DNA of 64,000 bases, taken from Candidatus Micrarchaeota archaeon (GTDB lineage: Archaea; Micrarchaeota; Micrarchaeia; Anstonellales; Bilamarchaeaceae). The notes under the pieces are model-generated. The model was not told the origin of the DNA. It searched no databases and worked only from the letters and a program-made list of their open reading frames with translations. Made by a program: the position numbers and the translations under genes. Where the stretch lies: the NCBI GenBank assembly GCA_014727925.1, contig WJMN01000047.1, positions 41,833 through 105,832 of the forward strand, written 5' to 3'. Positions 56-20,523 of the stretch are shown piece after piece (position 1 is the stretch's first letter; each line of letters begins with the position of its first letter).

Positions 56-2776
56 TCATTCAAGGATGATTGCAGGCTTTCCCGGAGCAGCTGCAGCCGC
101 CTTCTCGTGCTCTGCTCCTCCCTCCCTTCCAATAACCACTTCAGCACCGGTTTCCCTGGAAATAAATGCTTTTGCATCCTCTAGTGCCCCAAGCTCTTCC
201 TCTTCCCCAAGCACAGCCGGAAGCGAGTGGACTTTTTTAAGGAGGGACTTTGCAAATTTTGAGGCTGCCCCCATATCCTCCACCCTGTTTGCCTTTGCCC
301 ATTCAATCCCTGCACGCATATCCTTCTTTTCCCGCATTTCCCTGTATATCTCCCTTTTCCAGGGCGCGGCAGCATAAATGTAGATTCTGGATGCCTTTTT
401 TCCAAATCGCTTTTCTATATTTTCCACATCCCCCAGCACCCCTAAGATGAGTTTCTCTCCCATCTCAACTGCATCATCTATCGCACCATATTCCGGCCCA
501 GGGTATTTCTGCTCAACAGCCAGCCCATCTTTTTCGCATCCTGACCATATCTCTTCGGCAAGGTGGGGCATGAAAGGAGAGAATGCGATGCACCATTTTT
601 CCAGGAATTCTCCGAGCGCCGGCGTTTCGGAGCGTTTTATGTACCACTGCAATTCCTGGACTGTTTCATAGAAAAGCATCTGCCCAAGCTCCCTTATCTG
701 CATTCCTGAATAAAGCAACTGCGCATCCCTTAGCTTTCTGTTCAGGCGGGAGCGGAGCCATTTTCCTGCCCGCGAGCCATCTCCTGCTTTTCTATATTTG
801 CTCAGGGAAAGCATGTATTCGGCCCTCTCCTTTACCCCCTCAGCAATGCTTGTTTCAAAATTTGTGTCCTGGGGAAGGTCCGCTCCTCCCACTACAGAGA
901 ATCTTACCACATCCGCACCATATTTCCTTATCGCTTCCCTGAGGGGGAGAATGTTCCCAAGCGATTTGCTCATCTTCTTGCCCTCCATGAGCACAAACCC
1001 GTTTACGATTATGCTCTTCGGCCATTGGGCCTTTGGGAACACTGCAGCATGGTTGAAAATAAAGAAGGGGAGGTGATTCCTTACCAGGTCTGCCCCGGAA
1101 TGCCTTGCATCAAGCGGATACCAGTACAGGAATATTTTCCGCAGCTTCTCTGCTTCCGGGTGCACATCTTTGTCCCCTTTCCCCAAAAACACATAATCAA
1201 AAAATTCCTCGGTAAGCTCTTCCGGGGACATTCCTGAAAGCTCATGGGCGATGGTGTAAAAAGCCATGTATATTGTTGAATCCGAAAGCGGTTCCACAAT
1301 CTTGCTCTCATCAAAAGGGAAAGGAGTTCCCAACCCAGAAGACCTTGTGCACGCCTTCTTCTTGAGCCAGTCTACTGTGCGGAGATAGTCCTTTCTGGTT
1401 TTTTCAGGTATAAGCGACATTTCGGCCAGGCACTCCTTTGCCTTTATTTTCCATTCCTCATCCCCATAGTTGATGAACCACTGGTTTTCCACCCTCTTTA
1501 CTGCTATCCTTGTTCCGCATCTGCAGACTACCGGTCCGTTTGCAACCACGTAAATTGTAAATGCCTTGTTTTCTGTTGCAAGTTTTTCTGCAACCCTTTC
1601 CTTTGCCTCCAGCACAGGCATCCCTTCAAATTCCCCAATGGTCATCTTCCCTTTGTGCGCCTCTTTCTTGTAAAGTTCCTTGGTAGCAATCTCTGCTTTT
1701 ACATCTCCCTGTCCCTCAACCCCCAGTTTATCAATAATCCCTTTTGCAGGAATCTCTGTAGCACCGGGAAAGGAGAGAAGGGGGATAGGGGGAAGCTCCT
1801 CCAGCTTATCCAGGTCCCGGAGCGCAAGATAATCATAGGGAGCGTGGGCAGGAACGCTCATTACAATCCCTGTCCCTGCCGAAGGGTCAACAAAGGATGC
1901 GGGAAGCACCGGAACCCCCCTTCCAAGCGGAGTCATTGCTTTTTTCCCCGCAAGCACACTTCCATCAATTTCTCCTAGCACTTCGCCTTCCATCTGAAGG
2001 GAAACCGCCTCCCATGCATCTTTACCGAAATAAAGCACCCCTTCCTTTGTTTTTACCCTGACTATTTTTGATTTGGGGCTTACCCACAAATTTGTAACTC
2101 CATAAACTGTTTCCGGGCGGTAGGTGCTCACAACAAGGAATTCCCCTCCCCCGAGCCCGAACTTTACTGCAGTAACCTCTTCGATTTCCGGGTCCACATC
2201 TCCCTTTGTGTCATGTGAGCTCACTACGTTTCCGCAGGAAGGGCACCAGGCAAGCCTGTGGTTTCCCTGCGTAATGTATCCCAGCTCATGCAGCTTCTTC
2301 ATCTGCCACTGGATAAATTTGCTAAAATACCTGTCAAATGTGTAGAATTTTCTTCTCCAGTCTATTGAATATCCCATTTCCTTCATCCCCTCTTCAATCT
2401 CCCCTGAAAAATACATCACAAGCTTTTTCGGGTCTCCCAGTTCCGCAAGCTTTTCTTCCGGAATTCCATAGATGTCCCTGAATATCCTCAGTAATTCCTC
2501 ATCTTTTTCCCTTATTTTTTTTGCCATGGCCAATATTGGAGTCCCTGTTACGTGGAATGCCATGGGCAGGAGCACGTTTTTGCCCTTCAGCCTTGCATAG
2601 CGCGCATGGATATCCAATATGGTATATGTCCTTCCGTGGCCTATGTGCTGAGGGGAATTCGGGTAAGGGAATGCAGCAGTATAGAACTGCTTTTCCCCAC
2701 CTTCATCCTTAGGATTGTAAGCCCCTCCCTTTTCCCACACTCCCTGCCACTTTTTTTCCATCTCCCTAAATTCCAT
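56..2776 (-). CDS. leuS: Leucyl-tRNA synthetase, archaeal/eukaryotic type
   Basis: 906 aa; AAFPYPNSPQHIGH (HIGH), KMSKS, editing-domain GTGIVMSVPAHAPYD, Zn knuckle CPSC. Confidence 0.96.
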   Translation of the reverse strand: MEFREMEKKWQGVWEKGGAYNPKDEGGEKQFYTAAFPYPNSPQHIGHGRTYTILDIHARYARLKGKNVLLPMAFHVTGTPILAMAKKIREKDEELLRIFRDIYGIPEEKLAELGDPKKLVMYFSGEIEEGMKEMGYSIDWRRKFYTFDRYFSKFIQWQMKKLHELGYITQGNHRLAWCPSCGNVVSSHDTKGDVDPEIEEVTAVKFGLGGGEFLVVSTYRPETVYGVTNLWVSPKSKIVRVKTKEGVLYFGKDAWEAVSLQMEGEVLGEIDGSVLAGKKAMTPLGRGVPVLPASFVDPSAGTGIVMSVPAHAPYDYLALRDLDKLEELPPIPLLSFPGATEIPAKGIIDKLGVEGQGDVKAEIATKELYKKEAHKGKMTIGEFEGMPVLEAKERVAEKLATENKAFTIYVVANGPVVCRCGTRIAVKRVENQWFINYGDEEWKIKAKECLAEMSLIPEKTRKDYLRTVDWLKKKACTRSSGLGTPFPFDESKIVEPLSDSTIYMAFYTIAHELSGMSPEELTEEFFDYVFLGKGDKDVHPEAEKLRKIFLYWYPLDARHSGADLVRNHLPFFIFNHAAVFPKAQWPKSIIVNGFVLMEGKKMSKSLGNILPLREAIRKYGADVVRFSVVGGADLPQDTNFETSIAEGVKERAEYMLSLSKYRKAGDGSRAGKWLRSRLNRKLRDAQLLYSGMQIRELGQMLFYETVQELQWYIKRSETPALGEFLEKWCIAFSPFMPHLAEEIWSGCEKDGLAVEQKYPGPEYGAIDDAVEMGEKLILGVLGDVENIEKRFGKKASRIYIYAAAPWKREIYREMREKKDMRAGIEWAKANRVEDMGAASKFAKSLLKKVHSLPAVLGEEEELGALEDAKAFISRETGAEVVIGREGGAEHEKAAAAAPGKPAIILE

Positions 2777-2787
2777 AAGCGTTGCCT

Positions 2788-2830
2788 CTGATTAAGAGTA
2801 AAGTTTATGTAAATACATTTATATTTGTTA
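2788..2830. promoter_or_regulatory. Divergent AT-rich promoter region between leuS and the six-paralog operon
   Basis: AAAGTTTATGTAAATACATTTATATTT with TATA-like boxes between divergent starts. Confidence 0.5.
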
Positions 2831-2848
2831 GTCGCCAGAAGTATCCCC

Positions 2849-4072
2849 ATGAGCGGGCCATCATTACCCATGCAAGTCCTGCCCCTGCTCCAGGCCGGTG
2901 AGGTTTCATGGCTTGGCCAGGAGGTTTCCCAGAATCCCATGGTCACCAGCCTTCTCCCTATTGCCCTCCTCACTGCAGCATTTATCATAACCCTCTATTA
3001 CCTTATTGGAAAAGCCCTGAGCTCCCCCCAGGTGAATGCATTTGCCACAGAAGAGTTCTCCCAGCTTCTGGTTTCTGTTTTCATCGCAGTTGCCTGGTTT
3101 GCGGTTTATGGAGCGCTTGCAGGGGCAACTTCGCTTGCAATATGCTATCCGGATTACTGCGACCATTTTGACATCGCCTTCTACTCTCTTGATATGCTTT
3201 TCTACAAGCTAATTTCCACCTACATTGGCTACACCACAATAGAGATATTTGTGGGTCTTGTTTCAAGCCTCGGGTTCAGCGTTCCTCTTAAGTCCCCGGT
3301 GCTTGCAGTAAAATTCCTCAGTTTTTCACCTTACTCTGGGATGGGGATGCTTAGCAATTCAATAGTAGGGATACTAGAAAGCCTGGGGATGTTCATCGGG
3401 CTTGTTGTCGGGAGGAAGCAGCTCCTCACCTTTTTCTATGAGATAACCCCGATGTTCCTACTCCCGTTCGGGCTTTTCCTTCGCTCCCTCCCGTTTACCA
3501 GAAAAACAGGCTCCAGCATAATTGCAATAGCTTTTGCAGGATTTTTCATCTTTCCTGCTTCAATAATCCTTTCCCACTATATGATGTTCGGGACAAGCGG
3601 CCACCTCGCCTACATCCCCATGGCCCCCACTCCCACTGGGCTCTGCACGGCCCCGGAAAACCCAGAGGATGAGGCAGCTGCCCTAGCTTACCTAAACCAG
3701 TCAAACACAGAGGTGAGGGAACACCTTGCGGAAGACTTAAGCGCCTCTGCCTCGTATGAAGGCAACTGGTACCAGTTTTCCGGGCTGGCCAATGCCATAT
3801 ATTCCTGGATTGCAGAGGCCCTTGATGAGTCGTGGGGCGTTGTTTCGGAGAAATTTTCATTTTATTCCCTCTTTGACCTGCTCAAGCCCACAACATTCGC
3901 TTATTTCTTTTATTTCCTGATACTAGAGCACCTCCAGGCATTTGCACAGGTTGCAGTAATGACCATAGTCACTTTCGTGATTGAGATAATAATTACGGTT
4001 ACCGGGTACCGCGCAATAGCAGCGGCGCTTGGCGGGGAACTGGAAATTCTCGGCCTCACAAAGGTGGTGTGA
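2849..4072 (+). CDS. Polytopic membrane protein, paralog 1 of 6 (putative CedA/VirB6-like)
   Basis: Multiple TM helices; LPFGLFLRSLPFTRKTGSSIIAIAFAGFFIFP core; C-terminus LGGELEILGLTKVV; start uncertain (2825 TTG, 2849 ATG). Confidence 0.8.
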   Translation: MSGPSLPMQVLPLLQAGEVSWLGQEVSQNPMVTSLLPIALLTAAFIITLYYLIGKALSSPQVNAFATEEFSQLLVSVFIAVAWFAVYGALAGATSLAICYPDYCDHFDIAFYSLDMLFYKLISTYIGYTTIEIFVGLVSSLGFSVPLKSPVLAVKFLSFSPYSGMGMLSNSIVGILESLGMFIGLVVGRKQLLTFFYEITPMFLLPFGLFLRSLPFTRKTGSSIIAIAFAGFFIFPASIILSHYMMFGTSGHLAYIPMAPTPTGLCTAPENPEDEAAALAYLNQSNTEVREHLAEDLSASASYEGNWYQFSGLANAIYSWIAEALDESWGVVSEKFSFYSLFDLLKPTTFAYFFYFLILEHLQAFAQVAVMTIVTFVIEIIITVTGYRAIAAALGGELEILGLTKVV

Positions 4073-5037
4073 TGCCCCTCCTGGAAACATACCTCCCGAT
4101 AGTCGGAATAACTGTGCTTGCAGTTGTTGCATATATCTCAATAATAACTATTGCTGCATTTGCCCTGAGGCGCCCCCAGCTTGCTGCGTATGCAAGGATA
4201 GAGTCCTACCAGCTATTTCTCTCGTTCCTCATACTTGTTGCCGCATTTGCAGCCATGGAATTCTCCAACCTGATTTCTACTATGATTTCCCAGGCACCCC
4301 CAGGGGAAACAGCAATAGACATTTCAGTGGATTTTCTAGAAAAGGTAATCCATGAAGGTATCCTGCCTATTTACCTAAAGCTCGTGAGGATGGAAGTCCT
4401 GCTCACCTACTTCAATGCAGTTGAGTACAGGATGGGTCCTGGAGTATGGAACTGGATAACCAAAGCAGTTCCCGGTCTTGACCCAATAATTTCCCTGGTG
4501 CGGATGCTTGTTTTCACATTTACTGCCCTATATGGAACTCTCAGCGTCCAGATAATAATATTCCACCTAATTGATGCGATTATGTACTTTTATGTGCTGC
4601 CCGCAGGAGTAATATTGCGGTTTTTCCCGCCCACGCGGGACGCAGGGGTCTATCTGATAGTGCTGGCCATAGCTTTCCAGGCATTTTTTCCCATGTTTTA
4701 TGCAATAAACTATGCTGCACTGGATGACATGTGGGAGATGCACGGGTGGGCGGACCCGGACAGCACCGGAACTTACGATAGTTATACTCCGGATATTGAA
4801 GACACCAATTATTTTGAAAGCGTCAACTCGGCACTGGGCACTGCGACAAGCATGGCAGATACTTATTTCAATTGGGCACTTCCTGTGTTCCAGCCCTTCG
4901 CTTTCTCAGTGCTGGTTCCATTCCTTGACCGTATTGCCCAAATTTCCCTGGTCGGGCTGTTTCTCCCGGCCCTTTCAATGAGCATTACAATAGCCTTAAT
5001 TAATGCGGTGACCAAGTTCATCACCGGGAAGGGATAG
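4072..5037 (+). CDS. Polytopic membrane protein, paralog 2 of 6
   Basis: TGATG overlap with paralog 1; core LPAGVILRFFPPTRDAGVYLIVLAIAFQAFFP. Confidence 0.8.
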   Translation: MPLLETYLPIVGITVLAVVAYISIITIAAFALRRPQLAAYARIESYQLFLSFLILVAAFAAMEFSNLISTMISQAPPGETAIDISVDFLEKVIHEGILPIYLKLVRMEVLLTYFNAVEYRMGPGVWNWITKAVPGLDPIISLVRMLVFTFTALYGTLSVQIIIFHLIDAIMYFYVLPAGVILRFFPPTRDAGVYLIVLAIAFQAFFPMFYAINYAALDDMWEMHGWADPDSTGTYDSYTPDIEDTNYFESVNSALGTATSMADTYFNWALPVFQPFAFSVLVPFLDRIAQISLVGLFLPALSMSITIALINAVTKFITGKG

Positions 5038-5038
5038 G

Positions 5039-6301
5039 ATGGTTCTGGAATTGTGGGCGCAATGGGGCGGACTTGCCGGGGTAGGGATAATGCTGGCAGT
5101 TGCATTTGCGGTGCTTGTTTACCTTCTCGGAAGCTTTCTGAACAACGACAGAATGAGGGCCTTTGGGCGGCTTGAGGTTGTAGAAGCTTTCTATTCTGCC
5201 ATACTCCTGATATTAATTTTCTGGATTCTTGCAACAGCAACCGGTGCAGCAGAAACCCTCATAGTGGGCGCCTACCCCGGAGAGATAGGGGCAGCAGTGT
5301 GCGGCTCCCAATACGATGCATACTTCAATGATTATGACGGTGCCTTCCCCTGCCACATGCGCACTGCCCGCTTCTACCTTGACCAGCTATATGCAGAGGG
5401 CAAGGTATTCAATTATGAGCTTCTTTCAATCCACATGTGGTATTCTTTTATGCAGAACATCGGGGTTTCTGCGGATTTCCACGCGCACAGCACCGGCTCT
5501 GCAAATTATTCTCCCCTCGGTTCTATTTTCAGTCTGCCCTCATCCATCTATTCCTACATGTTTGAGATAGGGATGAAGTCCATGATAGTGATACGTTTCC
5601 AGCAGTTCCTGCTGAATTTCATAAACTATTCACTTTTCCCCGTTCTCCTGGTGCTCGGACTTCTTCTGCGCACTTTCCCTTTCAGCCGACGCCTGGGGGG
5701 CCTGCTCATGGCAATGGCAATTTCCCTTTATTTTATTTATCCAATGTTCTATGTGCTAGGAGGCGTAATCTTTGACAATATTGCGATGAAGAGTGCATAT
5801 TATTCCGGGGGCCCCACGGTGGATGAAAACGGAAACATAAAGCGCCCCTCAGTAATCACGTCCCTTGAATTTGACCCTGAGGAGTTTTACGGCAAGGTGG
5901 GCATTACAGATGAAGATGCAGACCTCCTGCCCTCAGGAGACGAAGTGCCGGGCAACAACCAGGACGATGTCAACCTAGACTACCTTGACCAGCTTTATCC
6001 TGAAGAAATGGAGATGTGCAGGAGTTCGGATCTTGGTGTTGTGGACGGGATTTCCATGATATGGGACTGGGCAAAATTGTTCCTTTACGAGGTTGATTTT
6101 ACCGGGCTGATAATCTCAAATGAGAGTTACATAGATTCCCTAATATCCCCCGGTGGGGTGATAGATGCAACCGCCCGCTTTGTATTCTTTTCAATGTTTT
6201 TTGCCCTGCTTTCAATATTTTCCACAGTAGCTGCGATAAGGAGCCTTTCTCCGCTCCTTGGAGGAGACATAGAACTCGCCGGGCTTACCCATCTGCTATG
6301 A
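5039..6301 (+). CDS. Polytopic membrane protein, paralog 3 of 6
   Basis: Core LVLGLLLRTFPFSRRLGGLLMAMAISLYFIYP; acidic external loop; C-terminus LGGDIELAGLTHLL. Confidence 0.8.
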   Translation: MVLELWAQWGGLAGVGIMLAVAFAVLVYLLGSFLNNDRMRAFGRLEVVEAFYSAILLILIFWILATATGAAETLIVGAYPGEIGAAVCGSQYDAYFNDYDGAFPCHMRTARFYLDQLYAEGKVFNYELLSIHMWYSFMQNIGVSADFHAHSTGSANYSPLGSIFSLPSSIYSYMFEIGMKSMIVIRFQQFLLNFINYSLFPVLLVLGLLLRTFPFSRRLGGLLMAMAISLYFIYPMFYVLGGVIFDNIAMKSAYYSGGPTVDENGNIKRPSVITSLEFDPEEFYGKVGITDEDADLLPSGDEVPGNNQDDVNLDYLDQLYPEEMEMCRSSDLGVVDGISMIWDWAKLFLYEVDFTGLIISNESYIDSLISPGGVIDATARFVFFSMFFALLSIFSTVAAIRSLSPLLGGDIELAGLTHLL

Positions 6302-6311
6302 GGTTCCAAAA

Positions 6312-7433
6312 ATGAAGACAAAAGTTTTGTTCCTGGTGCTGCTGTTCCTGTCTGCAGGGTTTGCCCAGGCTGGGGACCAGGCTTTGCAGGAGGCCGAACA
6401 GGATGCAATGGAAACTGCCAGCGAACTTCTTCAGGAGATAGGGATAACCAAGGATACCTGTGCCCCGGAAGAAGGCCCGCTTGACCTGGCCATCCCATCA
6501 GCAATAGCCCTGCTTGTTATCGGGACCGGCCTGGCAATATTCTACATGGCCGCTAGTTTTTTCAATTCCCCGCAGATGATTGCCATGGCAAAGCAGGAGG
6601 GCTTTGAGTTTATCCATACCCTGATAATTGTCGTTTTGTTCCTGAGCTTCATTTCCTTTGCCCAGGGTCTGCTGGGCGTTCACGGAGTTGGCCCCCTTGA
6701 TGTATATTCAAAAGCAATGGAATACTGCGTGGTCATGGTGCAGAAGATAACCGGGGACATGTTCTGGCTGGGCTTTTTCAACAACATTGTTTACCTTGTT
6801 TACAGCTCTCCACTTAGAATAGGCATCCTGCACCAGGCGGTCCACTTCAACCTGGGCGGAATACTCAAGCCCATGGTGGACGGGCTGGGCACCATGGCTT
6901 CCCTTCTTTCATTTGCAATGGGAGAGTGGATTGTACAGCTGATTCTGCTATGCCTCATAAAGAAGCACATGCTCACTGTCTTCCTCCCGCTTGGAATCCT
7001 GCTTAAGACCTTTCCCCAGACCAGGGGAGGGGGAAATGCCATAATCGCCATTGCAATAGCCCTTTCCTTGATCTATCCAATGATGATTCTGATGAATTAC
7101 CAGGCATACCAGTACCGTTATGGACAGATGGATGCAATAAGCGGGATAGGCGAAATCCTAAGCGACTGGACAATTTCCGGCGGAACACTTGCCACGGCTG
7201 CAGTGAGCCTTTTCCTGCTAAAGGGCCTGCTCAAGACTCTGCCCGGCATAGTGCTCCTAAGCTGGCTGGTGACGGTTTTCTTTGACCTTTATGCGGACGT
7301 GATTTACACGGTTTTTGTGCTGAGCATTTTCCTTCCCCTCCTCAACATTTTTGTCACATTCACTTTTGCGAGGGAGATAGCAAAATACTTCGGCACGGAA
7401 ATAAATATCTCAGCTTTCACTAAGCTGATATGA
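6312..7433 (+). CDS. Polytopic membrane protein, paralog 4 of 6, with extra N-terminal signal peptide
   Basis: MKTKVLFLVLLFLSAGFAQA signal; core LPLGILLKTFPQTRGGGNAIIAIAIALSLIYP; C-terminus FGTEINISAFTKLI. Confidence 0.8.
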   Translation: MKTKVLFLVLLFLSAGFAQAGDQALQEAEQDAMETASELLQEIGITKDTCAPEEGPLDLAIPSAIALLVIGTGLAIFYMAASFFNSPQMIAMAKQEGFEFIHTLIIVVLFLSFISFAQGLLGVHGVGPLDVYSKAMEYCVVMVQKITGDMFWLGFFNNIVYLVYSSPLRIGILHQAVHFNLGGILKPMVDGLGTMASLLSFAMGEWIVQLILLCLIKKHMLTVFLPLGILLKTFPQTRGGGNAIIAIAIALSLIYPMMILMNYQAYQYRYGQMDAISGIGEILSDWTISGGTLATAAVSLFLLKGLLKTLPGIVLLSWLVTVFFDLYADVIYTVFVLSIFLPLLNIFVTFTFAREIAKYFGTEINISAFTKLI

Positions 7434-7442
7434 GGTGGAACA

Positions 7443-8483
7443 ATGCCATATGAGATGCTTGCGACACAGGCCTGTTCTCCGGAGAACATGCTGATTCCGG
7501 ACTGGCAGGCCCTGGCAGTTGTTGCAATGGCAGCATCCGCAGCCCTCCTCGGCCTCCTTTATGCAATAAACCGGTTTTTTGGAAACGAAGCAGGAGAAGC
7601 AGCAGTCAAGCTGGAGCTTTTTGAGCTTTTTACAACAGTATTCATAGTTATCGTGGTATTTGCGTTGCTTAATTCTGCATGCGGGTATGATGCTAGCGGC
7701 CTGGTAATCGCCCCAAGCAATTTTGAGGCAGGCACAAATATTTTTGACGGGGCGGCCCAGGTTCTTGATGAATTTTCAACAAAGCTGGTGATAATCGCAT
7801 CTCTTCTCCATACAATCTATATTCCTCTTGATTTTACCACTTCCACCACTCTTACCCAACATCCCCTTGGCATGGGAACTGCCTTCCAGCCCACTGGAGG
7901 CTTTGGGGCTGTCATGAAGCCCCCACTTGTGCAGTCTTTCCAGATGGTTGCAGTTGCATTTGTAATTATACGCGCACAGCTTCTTGTGCTTGATTTTGTC
8001 ACTTTTGCCTTTCTCAAATATTACCTCCCCATAGGGATAATCCTGCGTTCCTTTACCCCTACCCGCAGGATAGGTGGAACAATAATAGGGCTCACAATAG
8101 GCATGGTAATCATCTACCCTCTTTTGATAATACTAAATGGGTTCATGCTTGACGGGCTGGACATAATGGATGTAACCAATCTTCCCGAATACTTCGGGGA
8201 GCTGCTTTCTGCTGCTCTTGAGCCTCTTAGGAATTCAACAAAGGTTCTCTCCCTTTATGAGCCCCTCTCAATACTTCAATTCGGAAAGCTGGCAATAACC
8301 AGCTTTTTTGGGGCACTACTTTCTGTATACTATGGACTGTTAATGCGCACTGCGGCAGTGGCTTTTCTTGTGGGGCTTTTTTTCCCCGCTTTCAATACTC
8401 TTTTACTTGTTACCATGATAAGATACCTCACAAAAACACTCGGTGAAGAGATGGATGTCACCAACCTCACGAGGCTGATATAA
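7443..8483 (+). CDS. Polytopic membrane protein, paralog 5 of 6
   Basis: RBS GAGGTGG; core LPIGIILRSFTPTRRIGGTIIGLTIGMVIIYP; C-terminus LGEEMDVTNLTRLI. Confidence 0.8.
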   Translation: MPYEMLATQACSPENMLIPDWQALAVVAMAASAALLGLLYAINRFFGNEAGEAAVKLELFELFTTVFIVIVVFALLNSACGYDASGLVIAPSNFEAGTNIFDGAAQVLDEFSTKLVIIASLLHTIYIPLDFTTSTTLTQHPLGMGTAFQPTGGFGAVMKPPLVQSFQMVAVAFVIIRAQLLVLDFVTFAFLKYYLPIGIILRSFTPTRRIGGTIIGLTIGMVIIYPLLIILNGFMLDGLDIMDVTNLPEYFGELLSAALEPLRNSTKVLSLYEPLSILQFGKLAITSFFGALLSVYYGLLMRTAAVAFLVGLFFPAFNTLLLVTMIRYLTKTLGEEMDVTNLTRLI

Positions 8484-9526
8484 TGGACGGCTGGATAATG
8501 ATATCTGCGGTCGCGGTTATAATCTCTGCCCTGCTTGCAGCTATCATGATAATGGCCTCCCGCCTCATGCAGCTCCCTGACCTTGAGCAGTGGGCAAAGT
8601 CCGAGCTGGTCTTCTCGCTTTCCACAGTATTTGTGCTCCTTTTCCTAATCTCCATAATTGAGTTTGCCGAGCCCCTCCTAGTAGACATCATAAGGGAGAT
8701 GACTGAATTCAACTTCGGGCAGCAGAGCGGCCAGATACCTGTGCTTCCCCCAGGGGAAGAGGCCACACTCATGGATTACGCCCTTGCGTATATGCATTCT
8801 GTTTTTTCCTGCATAAAATCTCTTTTCAAGTTCCTGCTCAAGCTGAATTTTCCCCTGGAACTGGCCGCCTCATTCAGCGTGGATGTTTTCATGTTTGATG
8901 CGGTGGGAGGCTGGGTTTACAAGGGCCCGGTCCAGACAATTAAGAACATGGCCAATTACATAACATTCACCCTGTTCATCTATTACTTGTTCATACACAT
9001 AATGCGTTTCCTGGAGGCAACTGCACTCACAATATTCATTCCGCTGGGGATAATTCTCAGGCAGTTTCCCCCCACCCGGGGCTCGGGTGCATTCATAATC
9101 TCATTTGCAATCGGGTTTTATATAGTGTTCCCGCTTGCTTACCTCCTCGTGGTCAATGTGGTGCCGCAAACGTTTGCCTGTCCGGTACTTCCGGAGTTTG
9201 AGCATCTAGATGGCCTTACGGCATATGGAATGGGCGACTCCCATACTGCTTCGGACATGCTTCTCTGGTCCGATGCCCACCAGAGCGGAGTCTGGAATAC
9301 CCTGAGCGGAATAGGCGGGTATCTTGCAGGTTTCGATCTTGATTCTTTTGATGTAATCCCGGATGCGGTTGAGTTTACTGCAGGAAGGGTTGCAGGGTTT
9401 TCCATAAACCTTTGCTGCCTCCCCTTTCTTGCAATGATAATAACAATGAGCTTCATCCTCTCCAGCACGAATCTTTTCGGAGCTAATCTTCCTGAGATAG
9501 GAAGGGGATTCATCAAGCTAATCTGA
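8483..9526 (+). CDS. Polytopic membrane protein, paralog 6 of 6
   Basis: TAATG overlap; core IPLGIILRQFPPTRGSGAFIISFAIGFYIVFP; C-terminus FGANLPEIGRGFIKLI. Confidence 0.8.
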   Translation: MDGWIMISAVAVIISALLAAIMIMASRLMQLPDLEQWAKSELVFSLSTVFVLLFLISIIEFAEPLLVDIIREMTEFNFGQQSGQIPVLPPGEEATLMDYALAYMHSVFSCIKSLFKFLLKLNFPLELAASFSVDVFMFDAVGGWVYKGPVQTIKNMANYITFTLFIYYLFIHIMRFLEATALTIFIPLGIILRQFPPTRGSGAFIISFAIGFYIVFPLAYLLVVNVVPQTFACPVLPEFEHLDGLTAYGMGDSHTASDMLLWSDAHQSGVWNTLSGIGGYLAGFDLDSFDVIPDAVEFTAGRVAGFSINLCCLPFLAMIITMSFILSSTNLFGANLPEIGRGFIKLI

Positions 9527-10492
9527 TTTTTTGAACAGGTAGTGATAGAATGGATTTTTTTCCGCCCCCCGCTTAAGCAGCTCAATATCATACCCTTCCT
9601 TCTCAAGTTTTTTTGCCTCCCCCTCTATTTCAGCAGCCTCCATGTAATCCAGCTTTTCAAGCTCTACCGAAAAAAGCTTCCGGCCCAGCACCCTCTCCAC
9701 GAACCCATCCTGTGCCTCAACACTCCCCCTGCATTTTTTCTCAAGCCACCCGAAATCAACATCAACAGTGTACTGCTCCCCGTATTTCCTTACAACTGAA
9801 CTGTTCCATATTTCAGATGTAAGCGCTTCAATTTCCTCTGTTCCGTAGAATCCATACTCAAAAAGGCTCAGCCCCCCTCCATCAGCGAGTTTTCCCTTCC
9901 ATTTTTCCACCAGGCCGATTGCTTCAATGTTCACCGGTACCCAGTATCCCTCCGGGATGTTTTCCATCCTTTCCATGGCAACTGCAGGGGCGCGTGGCTG
10001 TTCCCATGCCGCAAATTCACCGTTGTTCCATCCCACTTCGTAAATTTTCCCCTTCTCTTTTACAAATACTCTTGCAGGAATATCATCCAGAATCTCGTTT
10101 CCCCTTATCCAGAGAGCACTGCCCATTTTTTCCGCTTCTTCTGCAGGGGCACACACGGATTCAATTGCATATTCCCTCAGCTTCTCCTCAGACGCATCCA
10201 GCATTTTCCTGCTTATGTCCCACAGCGTGTATACTACCCTCTTGCCCACCGAATGATCTATCCTGTTAATGTTTTCAAGGAATTTTTTGGCAAAGCTGCC
10301 GTCACCCACACCAAACTCATAAACCCTGAGCTCCCCTTCTGTGTTGCCCGCACTCTCAAGGAATTCCAGTGCACATGCCTTGCCCAGCCTTGCAGATGCC
10401 GCAAAGGTCTTGAAGTCCTGGTAGATGTGCTTGCCCCTTTCCGGATAATACCTGCGGTTGGTCCTCTCCATAAGCTTTGCAATGCTCTCCAT
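9518..10492 (-). CDS. SAM-dependent methyltransferase, MidA/NDUFAF7-like
   Basis: DFKT near N-terminus, motif I VYEFGVGDG, GNEILDDIP, TVDVDF; start placed at MESIAK to avoid overlap with the divergent gene. Confidence 0.75.
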   Translation of the reverse strand: MESIAKLMERTNRRYYPERGKHIYQDFKTFAASARLGKACALEFLESAGNTEGELRVYEFGVGDGSFAKKFLENINRIDHSVGKRVVYTLWDISRKMLDASEEKLREYAIESVCAPAEEAEKMGSALWIRGNEILDDIPARVFVKEKGKIYEVGWNNGEFAAWEQPRAPAVAMERMENIPEGYWVPVNIEAIGLVEKWKGKLADGGGLSLFEYGFYGTEEIEALTSEIWNSSVVRKYGEQYTVDVDFGWLEKKCRGSVEAQDGFVERVLGRKLFSVELEKLDYMEAAEIEGEAKKLEKEGYDIELLKRGAEKNPFYHYLFKKSD

Positions 10493-10544
10493 CACACTTT
10501 TCCTGCTCCGAAACAAATAATAATCATCTCCCTGATTTATCCGC

Positions 10545-11102
10545 ATGCAGCAGTTCGTACTTGACACAAGCCTTTTTGTCAATCCTGACTGCAGGAAGCA
10601 GTTTGGGAAAACCCCCTACTCTTCGGTTTCAGGCTTCATAAAAAAAGCGAAAACAAAAAAGAAAAAGGCAGAGTTCTACATGCCTCCCATCGTGTTCAGG
10701 GAACTTTCCCATTTCACTGAAAAGGGCTCTTCCCGGCTTTCAACTGTAGTTAAAAAGCGAGCCCCGAACCTTTATGGAATATACATACCTGCAGCAATCC
10801 TCTACACCTTCATAGATGATGTAAGGATGCGGGTAAACAAGGGTCTGAGGCTCGCAGAGGAGTTTGCCAGGGACAACAAGCCGGACAACAGGGCAAAGCT
10901 CAACAAACTCAGGGCAAAATACAGGGAGGCTATGCGCAGGGGGATGGTTGATTCCAAGGAGGACCTGGAGGTTATACTGCTCGCGTATGAGCTCGGGGCA
11001 ACAATTGTCACTTCTGATGAGGGGATGGTTGAGATGGCGAACAAGATAGGTGTTGAATGGATAGAGGCAGAGAGGTTCGGCGCCCTTCTCAAATCAATTT
11101 GA
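10545..11102 (+). CDS. RNA-free RNase P (HARP / Aq_880 / MJ0950 family PIN-domain protein)
   Basis: FVLDTSLF, spike helix RMRVNKGLRLAEE...LRAKYREAMRRG, DSKEDLEVILLAYELGA, TSDEG acidic residues. Confidence 0.88.
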   Translation: MQQFVLDTSLFVNPDCRKQFGKTPYSSVSGFIKKAKTKKKKAEFYMPPIVFRELSHFTEKGSSRLSTVVKKRAPNLYGIYIPAAILYTFIDDVRMRVNKGLRLAEEFARDNKPDNRAKLNKLRAKYREAMRRGMVDSKEDLEVILLAYELGATIVTSDEGMVEMANKIGVEWIEAERFGALLKSI

Positions 11103-11147
11103 TTTAAAAGTATTTCTCTAGCCTAATCCCATCGTTTGGTGATTTTT

Positions 11148-11594
11148 ATGCCCCCCAGAAAAATCCATAAATCTGCCCCGCTATCTAACCGCAGCCCTAC
11201 TATAATGAAGGCAGGCGGGATTTCCGGCCTACAGCACCTTCCACGCTGGGAAAAGTACCTTAAGCTGGGGGATGCTGCAGAAGAGCTGGGCCTGGGATTG
11301 GCTCACCTTGAGTGGAGAATCCGGGCATATTTTACTGCGCTGGAGCAGGGGAATTACCCTGCTGCACAGAAGATTGGACTGATTCATTTCACTGATAAAG
11401 AGGTGCGCATTGCCGAAAGCCTCCAGGTGCTTGGGGAGAATGCCCGCTCAGGCAGGCTGAACTCAGAACTCCAGTGCCTTGCTGAGAATGCCCTTGTGAC
11501 CGGAGTGCCGCGGGAGCTGGTTGCATGGGAGCTTGCAAAGCACCGTGCCCCAGATATGACTTTTCTTGAATGGAAACACCATATGCAACCTTAG
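11148..11594 (+). CDS. Hypothetical protein
   Basis: GGTGA RBS then ATG; fills the gap between HARP and the RNA ligase; basic Pro-rich N-terminus. Confidence 0.6.
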   Translation: MPPRKIHKSAPLSNRSPTIMKAGGISGLQHLPRWEKYLKLGDAAEELGLGLAHLEWRIRAYFTALEQGNYPAAQKIGLIHFTDKEVRIAESLQVLGENARSGRLNSELQCLAENALVTGVPRELVAWELAKHRAPDMTFLEWKHHMQP

Positions 11595-11599
11595 CCTTT

Positions 11600-12667
11600 C
11601 TAATCAGCCTGAGCATATCCTCCTATTGCCCTTCTCAGCCTCCTGCTTCCCTTTTTGTAGATTTTCCTGAATTTTATTCGTGTTCCCCCCTCCTCTTTCT
11701 TTTTTGAGTCCACTTCTATCCGGACCTCATCCGACATATGCTCCAGGACCTTCCTCCAGGTCCTGTTTTTTTTCACGAGAACCTCAAAGTCCTCACTTAC
11801 TTCCCCTCTGTTTTTTATTGCAGTGTAAAGATTTTTGTGCAGGGCCCTCCCCAGCTTTCCATCATATTTATCCTTGTCCAGCCCAAGTTCAGAAATGGAT
11901 ATTGCGCTCCTAAAGACACGCTGCTTCATGAACCCTGCCGGCATATCAAATATCATGTGCGAATTTTCTGCAAGGTCCTCTATCTCGGAGGAGGGGACCA
12001 CATATTTTATTATTTTTCTCGGCTTATCCTGCTTTAGCACAATCCCCTCCCCCCCGCTTTTTTCAACCCGAATCGCCGCTTTTTTTAGTTTCCCCGAATC
12101 CGGGCCCCCCATCCTCTCTACCAGGGGCGCGGCTCCCATTCTGTATTCTCTGCAGAGCTTTCTTTTTTCCCCGGTAGGGAGGAAATTGAGCTTTCCGTCG
12201 CTTATGTCAAACACATAATACTTAACATCATAATCCTTTGCGGGAGGGGTGTAGGGAGTGCACCCAACCATCTCAATATGGAGCACCTTTTCCGGGTGGA
12301 TTTTGAAGAATTCCCCTACTTCCTCCCTCTCCGAAATCTTCTCCATTGCAAAATAGTCCAGGAATCCTCCCCGTGAAATGCAGACAACTTTCCCGTGTTC
12401 ATAAGCAACCCTCAGGTTGAACCCGTCAATCTTTTCCTCTGCCCACGTTTCCTTTTTCCCAAGGTTTCTTTCCGCCCCTTCTGCAAGCGAAAAAACCCTC
12501 CTTATTTTTGGGTAACCGTACACAACCCGTTTTCCGATTATCACCGTCCCCCTGGGGATACTCCCTATCCTGTCCGAGAAGCGGTAGATTCCGTCTCTTT
12601 CCTCTACTTTTCCATTTCTGATTGCATCCCTGACCTTTTTCCTCAGCCCCTTATTCAGTTTCTTCAT
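11600..12667 (-). CDS. ATP-dependent RNA ligase, Pab1020/Rnl3 family
   Basis: GYPKIRR, motif I EEKIDGFNLRV, SRGG, YVFDI, EGIVLK; start at MKKLNK after GAGGA. Confidence 0.88.
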   Translation of the reverse strand: MKKLNKGLRKKVRDAIRNGKVEERDGIYRFSDRIGSIPRGTVIIGKRVVYGYPKIRRVFSLAEGAERNLGKKETWAEEKIDGFNLRVAYEHGKVVCISRGGFLDYFAMEKISEREEVGEFFKIHPEKVLHIEMVGCTPYTPPAKDYDVKYYVFDISDGKLNFLPTGEKRKLCREYRMGAAPLVERMGGPDSGKLKKAAIRVEKSGGEGIVLKQDKPRKIIKYVVPSSEIEDLAENSHMIFDMPAGFMKQRVFRSAISISELGLDKDKYDGKLGRALHKNLYTAIKNRGEVSEDFEVLVKKNRTWRKVLEHMSDEVRIEVDSKKKEEGGTRIKFRKIYKKGSRRLRRAIGGYAQAD

Positions 12668-13997
12668 CTTCCTCAACCACTGTTTTCTGGATTTCAACCT
12701 TTTTCTTCTTTTTGGGGTTTTTTGCGGTCTGCCCATCCCCTTTCTCCCCTGCTTCAGCATCTCCCTTTTTTGCAGGTTTTCCGTTGCCGAATATTACTGT
12801 GCCAAGAGTTGTGGCCAGTATGCTTGTAATTATTACCACGAATGCAATCTGGGGAAAAGAGGAGAACATTTTATACAGTATGTTGAATTCCCCTGCCTCC
12901 AGCAGGCTGGATTTTTCCAGGAGCATTGCTGCAGGGTAAGTGGCCATGATTGCGGTTGCCAGCCCCCTCGGCATCAGCACAGTAAGCTGGGGCCGGAATT
13001 CTAGCAGGTCGCTTTTCCAGGTTGAAACCCAGACTGCTGCAGCCCGCACTGCAAGCAGGAGCAGGGTCACCCCAATTCCTACAAGCACCAGCCCCATATC
13101 TGTGATATTTACAATGGTTCCCAGGAATACAAAGAAGAATGTCCGCACAAGGAAGGAGATCTCATTCTGGAATTTGCTTACCCCCGGCTCTTCGGCGACC
13201 CCCTCAAACCTGAGCATCTTTCCGATTTCCCCCATGTTTCCAAGCATGAAACCGAAAACCAGCGCGGCAATTGCCCCGCTCCCTCCGGTAATTTCTGTGA
13301 TTATGTAGAGCACAAGCATTATTGCAAGTGTGAGCATGTAGAAAAAATTCAGCTTCCTGAGCTTGGGGCTCAGCCCTATCCATGCCATTCCAAATATTAC
13401 CCCGAGCACTGCACCTATTGAGAAGCTGGAAACCACGCTTTGCGTAGTGCCCTGGATGCTTGCATGTCCTGAGATGAACGCGCCGGTCAGAGAAAGGACC
13501 AGTACCACTGCAACAACATCAGTTATCGAGGATTCTATGGTTATTGTCTGCCTGGCCTTCTCGCTTATCTTCATTCCCCTGGCTATGGGTATTACTATTG
13601 CGGAGCCGGTTCCTGCCACCACTGAACCAAGGATTATCCCTGAGAAAATGCTGTTTCCCATAATCGCCCAGGCAGCAGCAACCGCTCCTATTGCAAGGGC
13701 AAGCCCCAGCACCCCGAGGATTATTCCCCTCCCGCTCTCATGCACAAGCCGGTATATGTTCAGCTGTGTTCCACCATCAAAAAGCAGTATCAGCAGGGCA
13801 AGCGGGGCAAAGATGTACTCCAGCCCCACCATTGTATCAACATCAACTATCCCTGTTACCGGCCCCAGCAGGTACCCTGTTGCAAGCAGCAAAAGCACAG
13901 AGGGGATTCCATATCTCCTGAATATCAGCTCCCCCAGGAACCCCACCAGGATTATTCCGGCAAAAATTGCAAAAGCAACCAGTGTAGCAAACGCCAT
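12651..13997 (-). CDS. Cation:proton antiporter, CPA1/NhaP-like
   Basis: About 12-13 TM helices; LLFDGG, IESSITDV, FFFVFLG, MPRGLATA. Confidence 0.88.
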   Translation of the reverse strand: MAFATLVAFAIFAGIILVGFLGELIFRRYGIPSVLLLLATGYLLGPVTGIVDVDTMVGLEYIFAPLALLILLFDGGTQLNIYRLVHESGRGIILGVLGLALAIGAVAAAWAIMGNSIFSGIILGSVVAGTGSAIVIPIARGMKISEKARQTITIESSITDVVAVVLVLSLTGAFISGHASIQGTTQSVVSSFSIGAVLGVIFGMAWIGLSPKLRKLNFFYMLTLAIMLVLYIITEITGGSGAIAALVFGFMLGNMGEIGKMLRFEGVAEEPGVSKFQNEISFLVRTFFFVFLGTIVNITDMGLVLVGIGVTLLLLAVRAAAVWVSTWKSDLLEFRPQLTVLMPRGLATAIMATYPAAMLLEKSSLLEAGEFNILYKMFSSFPQIAFVVIITSILATTLGTVIFGNGKPAKKGDAEAGEKGDGQTAKNPKKKKKVEIQKTVVEEDEETE

Positions 13998-16712: not shown

Positions 16713-17083
16713 ACCCCTTGGAACCAGAAAAAATCCTTGTTGCATCAGTCGCAGTTTTTACAGGGTTGTTGATACTTGTGCTATTTATTTACTTTTTTTC
16801 TTATCCTGGCACCCGCCTGGATTTTTCGCCCACTTCCCTTGACCTGGGGAGCTCAGGCTATGAATGCACTCTAGGAGATGAGCTTCCCTGCACCGATGAG
16901 GGGGGTTGCCCGGGCACCAGATCCTGCCTACACGGAGACTGGTCTTCCTGCACTGTCCGGGAGGAATGCACCCCCGGGGAAACCCGCTTCTGCCCCACCG
17001 GGGGCTGCACCAACGGGGTACAGAGATGCGATGCATGCTCCCAGTGGGGGCCCTGTCTCCCCTCTGGATGCTCCAGCGGATAA
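16709..17083 (+). CDS. Small membrane-anchored protein with two Cys-rich repeats
   Basis: GTGA overlap with sppA; TM then ECTLGDELPC...GCPGTRSC..GDWSSC and ECTPGETRFC...GCTNGVQRC...SQWGPC. Confidence 0.75.
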   Translation: MNPLEPEKILVASVAVFTGLLILVLFIYFFSYPGTRLDFSPTSLDLGSSGYECTLGDELPCTDEGGCPGTRSCLHGDWSSCTVREECTPGETRFCPTGGCTNGVQRCDACSQWGPCLPSGCSSG

Positions 17084-17123
17084 CTCCGGTGTGTTTAAAA
17101 GCTTTTATTTTAGAATTATATCG

Positions 17124-17789
17124 ATGGGAACCAGAAAAGCATTTGTATTTTCCCTTGATTCATTTGTTGCATTTGTGCTTACAGTTGCTGCTCTGTATTC
17201 CCTCCTGTTTTTCGCAACGGTTCCTGCTGCTTATTATTCTTCGCTGACACAGGCAAATTACCTTGCAAAGGATACTCTGCTTGCGCTTGCAACAACCACT
17301 GCAGGTGAAGGGGCCGCCCACTGCAGCGAAGGGCAAACATATCTCGACTGTGTAATTGAAGATAAAAAAGCAGCGAGGATATATATAGGCTCAAAGGGCC
17401 AGGAAGGAGGATACGATGAGAGCGCCCTTGTGCCTGCCCAGTTTGGTTATAAGATTGAGACCCTTGATTTTTCGGAGGGAGACGGGGAAATAAACTTTTC
17501 TGATGCAGACTGGAGCGAAGTTTATAATACGGCAGATGACCCGCAGTCTGCAAACAAAAAAGAATACCACAAGCTCAAGGCAGCTGCCCACGCGCTTTAT
17601 TTTGGCTACAGCCAAGCCCCGGAGGGGGGAGAGGAATCCCCGCTCCACTATGTTAGCTGTGGAGGAGAATACACAATTTGCTCCTGGCCCGAGCCATTCA
17701 TTTATTATGGCAGCTATGACCATGAAGGGAACACTGACATCGTTGGAGATGCATATTCGCGGGTTGTGAGATTCACAGTATATACTTGA
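17124..17789 (+). CDS. Class III signal peptide (type IV pilin-like) protein
   Basis: MGTRKA|FVFSLDSFVAFVL followed by a hydrophobic helix. Confidence 0.75.
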   Translation: MGTRKAFVFSLDSFVAFVLTVAALYSLLFFATVPAAYYSSLTQANYLAKDTLLALATTTAGEGAAHCSEGQTYLDCVIEDKKAARIYIGSKGQEGGYDESALVPAQFGYKIETLDFSEGDGEINFSDADWSEVYNTADDPQSANKKEYHKLKAAAHALYFGYSQAPEGGEESPLHYVSCGGEYTICSWPEPFIYYGSYDHEGNTDIVGDAYSRVVRFTVYT

Positions 17790-17797
17790 GGTTTTCC

Positions 17798-19552
17798 ATG
17801 AACAGAAAAGGGTTTTTCTTCATAATCGTGGCGTTCGTCCTTCTTTCCTACATCCTTACATCTACCTATTTCTGGGTGCGGGCAATAGAGATGGAAGAAT
17901 CCAGGTATTCCGAAGCATTCCGCACAAGCTCCATGGAGATGGCGCTTTCCCAGGTAAATGAGGAAAGCGTAGGAGAATATGTGGACATTTCGGCCAGGTA
18001 TGCATTTTACCGCCTAAACCACCATTCTATTGAAAACCCGGTAAGTGTTCCGGGTGGTGTTGATATTGCAAATGAGGATTCCCTGGATGGCTCCGAGCTT
18101 GAGAACGTCCGTCTCGCGATGCGCGAGCTTGTGCTCTCCGGAACAGCACCAGAGGATTATTTTGAAGGGGAACCGCTAGAATATAGCGAAAATGAAAAAC
18201 TGGTCTATTCTCTGGATGGGTGGAAAAATCAGCTGAATGCATCGCTTGCCGCAGCCGGCTTTGAGCTGGTTGAGCTTTCAATAGATGAGGGTTCATTTGA
18301 GTTCAACCAGGTTAACTTCACCCAGTTTGAACTCGTTTTTGAAATGAACATGACCATTGTGGACAGCCAGGCAGGCTCTTCAACTTCCCTCCACCGCACT
18401 TATGATGTGAACCGCACGGTGGATGCAACAGGCATGGTGGATCCCTACATTGCCCGCGAATCCAAAAATCTGGACCTTGAATGGGAAGGAGAGAGCGTGC
18501 TGGTTGGGAAACCGGTATTTATTGCGCCCTACTGGGAAGATGGCTATGAAGCACTCTGCTCAGGAGGGGAAAACGGCCCCTGCTATTACGAGGATGATGG
18601 CTCAGAAGGCCAGGGCTGGTTTTATGGGCCAGTTGTTATGGCTGAGGATGCCTCCACTGTTCCTGAAAATGCAACCGACAATTATATTCTTGCAGGAAAT
18701 TATTCTGCTATAAAAAGCACTCCGGACTGGGATAAGTTCGGCGCATATATACTCACGAGCCCTCCCACCGAAGAGAATTCCGATTGCCCGGGCGAGAATG
18801 ACCAGGATGATACATTCAGCCCTGTTTATTATGATGGGGACTGTGATGCAGAGCTTGATACCGGATCAAACGATTACATCCAGAAGCCCTTCATGGTCTA
18901 TGAAGGGTTTGATATTGGTGATTATGGGGGAGTGGACCTCCAGAGCGGGGACGAGAATGCCCACAAGCTCCTATTTGTTGCAGGGGCAAACCCCTGGGAG
19001 GTAGAAACAGACCCGGAGCTAAAGTTTGAGGGTGTTTCAGTTTACAATATTGAAAATCTTAGGGATTTTGTAATGTGCGGATACTACATGCCGCGCAACA
19101 ACAGCCCCTCCTTTCTCCACCGCATGTTTGACCTGCAGGGAATGTTTAATGACGAGCTCCCTGCCTACGATGGCTGGCCCGAGAGCCCCTGGGGAATTGA
19201 GACCACTGCAGCAGGAAGGTGGGCAGGGGGAAACCTTGTGGCAGATTCCTGGGATGCCTACAGCAGGGTTGATGTTGAGTTCTTTTCAGAGGTGGAGAAT
19301 ACTCCCCAGAACCCGGTGCAGATGATTAAGGGGATGCCCGGGAACAAGAATATTTATATGTGCAACATGGAGTTTGGCTACGACCCGAACCTGGAGCATG
19401 TGGGCCATTTCAGGCTGAGTGACTGGGCCCAGGAAGACAGGGAAGAATACGATGATATTTACTGGATAGAAACTGATGACAGCCCGGATGTACCGGAGAA
19501 CGACAACACAGGTTGTGATAATGATGAGCAGGCAAACTGCGAGCTCGACTAA
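17798..19552 (+). CDS. Large acidic class III signal peptide protein (putative pilus adhesin)
   Basis: MNRKG|FFFIIVAFVLL; about 585 aa, Asp/Glu-rich, multiple Cys. Confidence 0.75.
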   Translation: MNRKGFFFIIVAFVLLSYILTSTYFWVRAIEMEESRYSEAFRTSSMEMALSQVNEESVGEYVDISARYAFYRLNHHSIENPVSVPGGVDIANEDSLDGSELENVRLAMRELVLSGTAPEDYFEGEPLEYSENEKLVYSLDGWKNQLNASLAAAGFELVELSIDEGSFEFNQVNFTQFELVFEMNMTIVDSQAGSSTSLHRTYDVNRTVDATGMVDPYIARESKNLDLEWEGESVLVGKPVFIAPYWEDGYEALCSGGENGPCYYEDDGSEGQGWFYGPVVMAEDASTVPENATDNYILAGNYSAIKSTPDWDKFGAYILTSPPTEENSDCPGENDQDDTFSPVYYDGDCDAELDTGSNDYIQKPFMVYEGFDIGDYGGVDLQSGDENAHKLLFVAGANPWEVETDPELKFEGVSVYNIENLRDFVMCGYYMPRNNSPSFLHRMFDLQGMFNDELPAYDGWPESPWGIETTAAGRWAGGNLVADSWDAYSRVDVEFFSEVENTPQNPVQMIKGMPGNKNIYMCNMEFGYDPNLEHVGHFRLSDWAQEDREEYDDIYWIETDDSPDVPENDNTGCDNDEQANCELD

Positions 19553-19988
19553 GAAAGGGCAGGCGGCCACTGAAACAATGGTCACCCTTGGAATGATCCT
19601 TGTTTTCGTGATACCCATACTGCTCCTGCTGCTCGTTGGCGCACAGGCCAGGTTTGAGTCTCTCTCCCATATTCAGGGTGGTTCAGTTATCAGGATAGTT
19701 TCTGATTCCATAAATGAGGTATATATAGAAGGCCCGGGCGCTTCAAAAACAGTTGTGGTTAATTTCCCAAGCAACGCCCGCTATCTCAACGTAACTGAGG
19801 ATGAGGTGGTGATGGGGCTGGATACCCGGAGCGGCCCAACAGATATAGTTTCCCCGTTTTTTGGTGAGCTCAACCAGAGCTCCAGGGGCCTGGTTGCACT
19901 TCCTTCAGGGGATGCACCTTCCGGGCTTTATCCAATAAAGTTTTATGCAGACAGCAGTGGAAATGTGGTGGTTGAGCATGGCGGGTAG
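19521..19988 (+). CDS. Class III signal peptide (pilin-like) protein
   Basis: KKG|QAATETMVTLGMILV (Q+1, E+5); SINEVYIEGPGASKTV. Confidence 0.8.
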   Translation: MMSRQTASSTKKGQAATETMVTLGMILVFVIPILLLLLVGAQARFESLSHIQGGSVIRIVSDSINEVYIEGPGASKTVVVNFPSNARYLNVTEDEVVMGLDTRSGPTDIVSPFFGELNQSSRGLVALPSGDAPSGLYPIKFYADSSGNVVVEHGG

Positions 19989-20523
19989 CAGAAAAGGCCA
20001 GATTGCAATTGAGTTCCTGATGTATTCAGGGCTTTTCCTGATAATTGCAATCGGCGCATATGTCCTTACTTCTTTTACAGAAAGAGGGGAGGTAAGCCTC
20101 AGGGAATCACAGCTGCTTGATGCATTCGGCTACAAGTTCGCTTCTGCGCCCACAATTGCCTACAAAGGAGGCGAGGGATTTACCTATGATATCTCTTTTG
20201 CAAAAAAGCTTGACAACCGCCCCTACAATGTTACCTATGCCTGCACAGGAGGCGACTCCAGGAGCTGCTATGTGCAGATTGCCTGGAGGGGCACTTACCA
20301 GGAATTCACCTACCCCTACGTGATTGCACCTGCCTTGTACAAGAAAGGGGAAGGTGCAGGGGATTCAGCTTGCATTGAGGATATAAGCTCAAGCAGCTCT
20401 GTTGACCTTGCTCTCAGGGTGGATTCTGAGTATTCAGATGGGCACCTTATATTCCGCAACACGGGAATCAAGCCAGGAGACGAATATCCCACAGTTGAAC
20501 TATATTGCGAGGTGGATGAGTAA
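19978..20523 (+). CDS. Class III signal peptide (pilin-like) protein
   Basis: RKG|QIAIEFLMYSGLFL (Q+1, E+5). Confidence 0.8.
   Translation: MAGSRKGQIAIEFLMYSGLFLIIAIGAYVLTSFTERGEVSLRESQLLDAFGYKFASAPTIAYKGGEGFTYDISFAKKLDNRPYNVTYACTGGDSRSCYVQIAWRGTYQEFTYPYVIAPALYKKGEGAGDSACIEDISSSSSVDLALRVDSEYSDGHLIFRNTGIKPGDEYPTVELYCEVDE

Follow-up and report, generated by a model that had tools for sequence, protein, structure and literature searches.

What does an archaeal cell do with six versions of the same membrane protein, encoded side by side? This question is raised by a 64,000-nucleotide stretch of DNA from Candidatus Micrarchaeota archaeon (the window; positions 41,833 to 105,832 of contig WJMN01000047.1, assembly GCA_014727925.1), which contains six consecutive genes for divergent membrane paralogs, p1 to p6 (Table 1). 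A preliminary description had proposed that the six form one heteromeric CedA/VirB6-like transfer channel, and this interpretation is partly supported by our analysis. We consider it roughly 60% probable that p1-p6 are the membrane core of a domesticated, chromosomal machine of Micrarchaeota that is related to the Ced DNA-import system and resembles type IV secretion systems (T4SSs). Together with a motor ATPase and pilins, the sextet probably builds a cell-contact transfer apparatus not described before; no description of the system was found in the literature on Ced, VirB4 and T4SSs in Micrarchaeota or DPANN archaea, of which subscription papers were poorly covered.

The six genes are co-oriented and tightly packed, as had been claimed, with intergenic gaps of -4, +1, +10, +9 and -1 bases (junctions GTGATG and TAATG) and pairwise identities of 20-30% among their products. 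Residues E, G, L, R, G and P are conserved throughout, in an N-terminal hairpin, where the invariant glutamate sits, and in an LPxGxxLRxFPxTRxxG...P core, for which a loose regular expression matched 56 of 83 family members. The three-block layout ascribed to all six proteins holds, except that the C-terminal GGx(E/D)...GLxxLI tail is missing from p2 and also from its position-2 orthologues.

The kinship with CedA was examined with a set of 40 crenarchaeal genomes, 28 of which contained CedA-family genes (26 aligned). Local profile-profile comparison of the Micrarchaeota family with CedA gave a probability of 94.5 over 163 columns, whereas reversed-alignment controls gave 0.13 and 0.27, and 25 block shuffles did not exceed 51, with scores of 35-40 versus 64.65 for the real comparison. 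With the crenarchaeal insert taken out, the global alignment ran end to end (probability 96.9), and profiles of the single positions p1 to p6 matched CedA with probabilities of 74, 65, 94, 65, 58 and 95. When the CedA profile was run on 4,526 open reading frames (ORFs) of the same genome, the family occupied ranks 1-3, with p6 first (E value 8.7e-5), and among 2,848 ORFs of retrieved loci it filled ranks 1-28; 66 other multipass ORFs, used as decoys, scored at most 1.8 bits. A reverse blind search of the crenarchaeal genomes gave seven weak matches, two of them inside CedA ORFs, and the best, a Vulcanisaeta protein (E 4e-6), was matched by the CedA profile too. Several results weigh against this relationship: the CedA profile left six of 15 family ORFs unscored, including four in the window; the curated CedA model NF041796 (cut-off 330 bits) had no match in the genome at E<=10 and none among p1-p6; the Pfam TrbL model matched none of p1-p6 at E<=1, and TrbL was absent among the 25 families listed, of 56, for 83 family members; and Pfam and NCBIfam searches of p1-p6 gave nothing meaningful. 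By the profile-profile match and the CedA-profile ranking, though not by the curated model, all of p1-p6 are remote homologues of CedA, and their helical layout is suggestive of VirB6.

As a separate observation, CedA-like genes occur in element-like regions of Vulcanisaeta (G187, L217:9450-17402) and Caldivirga (G182, L219 and L220), where the accompanying genes include a ParA-like gene, a two-helix gene and genes for P-loop ATPases. Of these CedA-like genes, one bridges the CedA and Micrarchaeota profiles, and a second copy in G187 is split across two frames.

The AlphaFold2 model of p5, built from an 83-row alignment (predicted local distance difference test score 87.8, predicted template modelling score 0.82), consists of an N-terminal hairpin (19-45 and 49-81), a long stalk bearing a small beta-hairpin, core helices at 152-202 and 208-238, a last long helix at 288-332 and a short tail helix at 339-345. 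From this model we predict five membrane helices and place both the tail and the basic core loop on the inner side. The best full-length fold matches were R388 VirB6/TrwI (PDB 7o3v, 8rt9) and DotA (9ngy), at an identity of 8-10% and a root-mean-square deviation of 6-8 Å. The modelled likeness to VirB6 and DotA is only suggestive: VirB6-type subunits were the top matches, as the preliminary description would lead one to expect, but the scores were weak and the TrbL family hidden Markov model (HMM) was negative.

The family was present in all 31 genomes of the order, including the one studied here, and the 12 arrays retrieved around top matches all consist of six genes in the same order. In a quick IQ-TREE analysis of 85 rows, each position formed one group; positions 2 to 6 required one change each and position 1 required two, because the first gene of a second array nests inside the position-1 group, and none of 500 shuffles was as low. 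Genes 1, 2, 3, 5 and 6 of the second array grouped with the same positions (support 99, 82, 86, 92 and 85), and gene 4 could not be placed. A FastTree analysis of 134 rows extended the positional grouping to three more taxonomic families. As counter-evidence, the copies of G057 and G061, which have long branches, were placed apart from the positional clades at five of the six positions, and two rows of position 4 strayed. Judged from these trees, the six positions are ancient orthologous groups, as expected of an old, maintained expansion in which paralogs group by position rather than by genome.

Of 33 loci picked around strong family matches, 22 hold exactly six copies, nine hold one and two are contig pieces. 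In a sample of 150 other genomes of the phylum, the family was found in 134 and the ATPase described below in 133 (E<=1e-30), both tallies counting the unpublished genome G054. The tallies differ only in G158 (89% complete), so that 133 of 134 carriers have the ATPase, while among the 16 genomes without the family the ATPase is missing from all and its partner gene X from 15 (one X match, E 0.009). Since the non-carriers fall in six taxonomic families, few independent losses would explain them; G159 and G161 carry a single-copy operon only. The arrays in the loci read sit among housekeeping genes, no relative was found in plasmids, and homologues are labelled hypothetical protein of Candidatus Micrarchaeota, with Atlas clusters mostly from Microcaldota. 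The co-occurrence with a secretion-type ATPase is thus near-perfect, and the chromosomal location and wide distribution are in line with the earlier suggestion of a domesticated core system.

A family profile search of the genome gave 16 matches, corresponding to 13 genes: the window sextet, a second sextet and one single copy on contig C42. A family size of six is therefore right for the window but not for the genome, which also has two CedB-like ATPase operons on other contigs. The second sextet extends across contigs C37, C28 and C33, which share 141 bases at their ends. Behind it come two giant proteins that contain DUF7107/EB-like Cys-rich repeats (L017:7610-15677, G000 C30, and L016:1-746), and similar large genes lie behind the second sextet in G012, G025, G024 and G029; these giant proteins are candidate surface adhesins or sensors. 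The position-3 proteins of this second array carry a large extracellular insertion rich in Cys and are 742-1,380 amino acids (aa) long (L015:1605-3866; L040, L042, L050, L051).

The absence of a VirB4/CedB-type ATPase near the array was confirmed, as a PF01935 search found no VirB4/HerA-type gene in the window; genome-wide, its matches were limited to C32:4711, C42 and C48, representing an ordinary HerA and two CedB-like ATPases. The C42 single-copy operon contains, in order, a pilin-like gene, the paralog, X (a 259-aa membrane protein), the ATPase and Y (243 aa), and the C48 module contains X2, the ATPase, Z, Y2 and W. The two ATPases match the CedB model NF041017 with E values of 4e-28 and 7e-23 (98 and 81 bits versus a cut-off of 700), and in a tree they are sister to the CedB rows, not nested within them. 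By sequence comparison, the motor corresponds to a CedB divided between two genes, X for the membrane/N-terminal part and another for the ATPase, since the ATPase alignment begins at position 251 of the model and X matches the CedB N-terminal domain (11 rows; profile-profile probability 97.8, reversed control 0.27). Several crenarchaeal CedB genes are likewise divided, with the N-terminal part and the ATPase encoded separately (L234-L236, L242-L246), and X matches the upstream piece at three of these loci. The ATPase module lies directly behind the sextet in three genomes: a single run of two pilins, p1-p6, X, X2, ATPase, Z, Y and W is found in G122 and G033, and the same run from p1 onwards in G061. 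The C48 ATPase is likely the partner of the window sextet, because it clusters with array-linked ATPases of other genomes (support 99). In G024, the genes behind the second sextet encode two giant proteins, X and an ATPase of the C42 type. The array-linked ATPase of G033 (L045:4485-7628) is 1,047 aa long, about twice the usual length, perhaps owing to an intein or insertion.

The two-helix pilins resemble the N-terminal hairpin of their own membrane family (probability 69), as has been reported for CedA1 and CedA. No match to 27 CedA1-like rows was obtained in profile-profile comparison (probability 0.7), and matches to PF18895 (E 0.012-0.068, under the cut-off) and TrwL (E 1.2) were poor; one Atlas cluster carries the CedA1 Pfam on 23% of its members. 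Upstream of the second sextet, at a distance of about 7.5 kb, there are two further pilin-like genes, and near-identical tandem pilin-like genes were seen at the C4/C37 junction (L014:8125-8741, L018:10330-10619). Gene Y (L020:4519-5247, L013:6584-7315) encodes an N-domain, a coiled coil and a C-terminal winged helix, which matches the archaeal ESCRT-III chain 2xvc_A (E 0.0022), and from its sequence Y could bind DNA or a partner protein. A separate CedD/VirD4 was not found in this 88%-complete genome, where NF053655 matched only HerA and the two CedB-like ATPases and PF02534 matched nothing.

The genome thus encodes hairpin pilins and a split CedB, and the sextet-linked operon of other taxonomic families has its orthologue here in the C48 ATPase operon. 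The system is like Ced (CedA, its paralog CedE, the pilin CedA1 and the ATPases CedB and CedD in Sulfolobales and Desulfurococcales; Ted in Thermoproteales) in its remote CedA and CedB homology, in a hairpin pilin gene adjoining the membrane gene, in the gene layout of its single-copy operon and in its chromosomal location. It is not Ced proper, however, as curated cut-offs were missed, the pilins gave no match to CedA1, and no CedD/VirD4 was found. Six position-fixed paralogs, twice in this order, replace the one or two of Ced, CedB is split with X doubled in the full operon, the conserved genes Y, Z and W and the giant Cys-rich proteins are additional, and the organism is host-dependent. Rickettsiales, also host-dependent, have several tandem VirB6 paralogs in their rvh T4SS, some with large extracellular extensions, although by description this is a bacterial P-type system with an outer-membrane core. 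In the p5 model, a membrane hairpin at the N-terminus leads into long stalk helices, as in VirB6/TrwI of R388 and DotA, but VirB6 is a homopentamer capped by VirB5; VirB5, VirB8-10 and VirD4 were not identified here, the only aimed search being that for VirD4. A small-epibiont parallel is offered by Patescibacteria, in which the accessible text of PMC12102498 describes a lineage-wide, mostly relaxase-less chromosomal T4SS with VirB2-like pilins; compared by description, it differs in being of the MPF-FATA type with VirB3, VirB8 and a coupling protein, and in arraying pilins rather than VirB6. In the portions available, PMC9905601 does not mention DPANN or Micrarchae, PMC11329633 does not mention VirB or Ced, and PMC12857230 does not mention DPANN or Ced.

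If the sextet is the core of a Ced-related machine, its six distinct subunits would, with somewhat better than even chances, co-assemble at fixed stoichiometry into one ring replacing homo-oligomeric CedA/VirB6. With similar odds, this ring would recruit pilins through its N-terminal hairpins, and the cytoplasmic ATPase would drive a short pilus or conduit at cell-cell contacts. Given an ancestry within the Ced lineage and no coupling protein, the most likely job would be to take up nucleic acid from a cell in contact, to be used in repair or as a source of nucleotides, although we hold this only tentatively, at a little under even odds. Both "pore" and "six-fold" would be departures, since the solved R388 VirB6, in the accessible part of PMC9259494, is a pentameric stalk and pilus base, not an open pore. 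There is a two-member precedent in the suggestion, made in the available text of PMC11868833, that CedA and CedE form a hetero-oligomer. In a bolder and rather doubtful version, p1-p6 would assemble obligately, at 1:1:1:1:1:1, into a heterohexameric CedA/VirB6 ring that fits the ATPase ring. This ring would serve as the symbiont's port where Micrarchaeota and host meet, as a candidate for the nanotube-docking barrel, and would draw in nucleic acid or other cytoplasmic content from a host belonging to another phylum; the duplicated cassette would supply this order with two such ports that differ in their surface sensors.

A serious, though less probable, alternative to DNA import by this machine is that the sextet is a pilus-assembly or docking platform for host attachment and general feeding on metabolites, RNA and proteins, with the second array and its giant neighbours serving host recognition. 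The pilus-base role of R388 VirB6, the Cys-rich giants trailing the second array in G000, G012, G025 and G024, and the failure to find CedD would fit this, as would, in the parts of these sources available, a 21-nm barrel of the Microcaldus envelope, of unassigned identity, that docks host nanotubes (PMC11329633), a relaxase-less T4SS essential to epibiotic growth of Saccharibacteria (PMC12102498, PMC12857230), and possible T4SS pili alongside feeding on host RNA (10.64898/2026.06.21.733656). However, the nearest detectable relatives, CedA and CedB, belong to a DNA-import system, the system is absent from 16 of the 150 genomes, and a link between the barrel and the sextet genes is hypothetical. 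It is unlikely that the paralogs work as alternative subunits, each in a homo-oligomeric (e.g., pentameric) machine of its own, or in a 5+1 arrangement, to suit different hosts or stages: although single-copy operons occur (nine loci), VirB6 is pentameric, p2 stands apart without the tail, and Rickettsiales also have several VirB6 paralogs, number and order are fixed across taxonomic families, the genes are translationally coupled, the whole cassette has been duplicated as a unit, and host-range paralogs might be expected to differ in number.

Still less likely is an export machine that would send DNA or effector proteins into the host cell. Export is what most T4SSs do, DotA ranks among the best fold matches, and a VirB4-like secretion role is proposed for nanohaloarchaea in the accessible text of PMC10266531, but VirD4 was not found in the genome at its 88% completeness, the sister groups are import systems, and effector genes were not identified near any array. 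Convergence of hydrophobic helical proteins, which would make the sextet an unrelated membrane complex, is very improbable; it would account for the negative curated HMMs and weak fold scores, but not for the decoy, reversal and ranking controls, the colinear end-to-end alignment with CedA, the independent match of neighbouring X to CedB and the operon linkage.

How DPANN archaea connect to and feed on their hosts is an open question, the imaged junction structures having no assigned genes according to the available text of PMC11329633. A Ced-related machine built on the sextet names a concrete gene set, found in about nine-tenths of the sampled genomes of the phylum and hitherto annotated as hypothetical. 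Ced-like systems would thereby reach beyond Crenarchaea, in parallel to the T4SS that Patescibacteria need epibiotically, and a fixed six-subunit heteromer, if true, would depart from the homopentameric VirB6 rule.

Table 1. Array genes and upstream flank, in positions of the window
Feature	Position	Strand	Description and basis
leucyl-tRNA-synthetase-like gene	56..2776	-	divergent from p1; named from HIGH/KMSKS motifs only, not from a database
spacer, leuS-like gene to p1	2777..2848	.	72 bp, AT-rich; sequence itself
p1, alternative start	TTG at 2825	+	gives 415 aa
p1 (paralog 1)	2849..4072	+	407 aa from ATG; CedA/VirB6-like five-helix membrane protein; ORF and position-1 clade
p2 (paralog 2)	4069..5037	+	322 aa; without C-terminal GGx(E/D)...GLxxLI tail
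p3 (paralog 3)	5039..6301	+	420 aa; acidic loop behind core
p4 (paralog 4)	6312..7433	+	373 aa; N-terminus signal-peptide-like (by eye)
p5 (paralog 5)	7443..8483	+	346 aa; subunit used for AlphaFold2 model
p6 (paralog 6)	8483..9526	+	347 aa; single best match of CedA profile

From its sequence, the spacer upstream of p1 is a likely promoter region, and a similar leuS-like gene borders the first array in eight of 12 relatives as well (by eye). Downstream of the sextet, a SAM (S-adenosylmethionine) methyltransferase-like gene, a PIN_5 nuclease, which we take to be of the RNA-free RNase P type, and a Pab1020-type RNA ligase (9518-12760) are syntenic with the array in close relatives. Five consecutive genes at 16878-20981 have prepilin-like N-termini (by eye), a similar run lying directly behind the sextet in G012, and a gene at 25149-29369 encodes a surface protein of 1,406 aa that is rich in Ser, Thr and Asn and has an anchor at its C-terminus.

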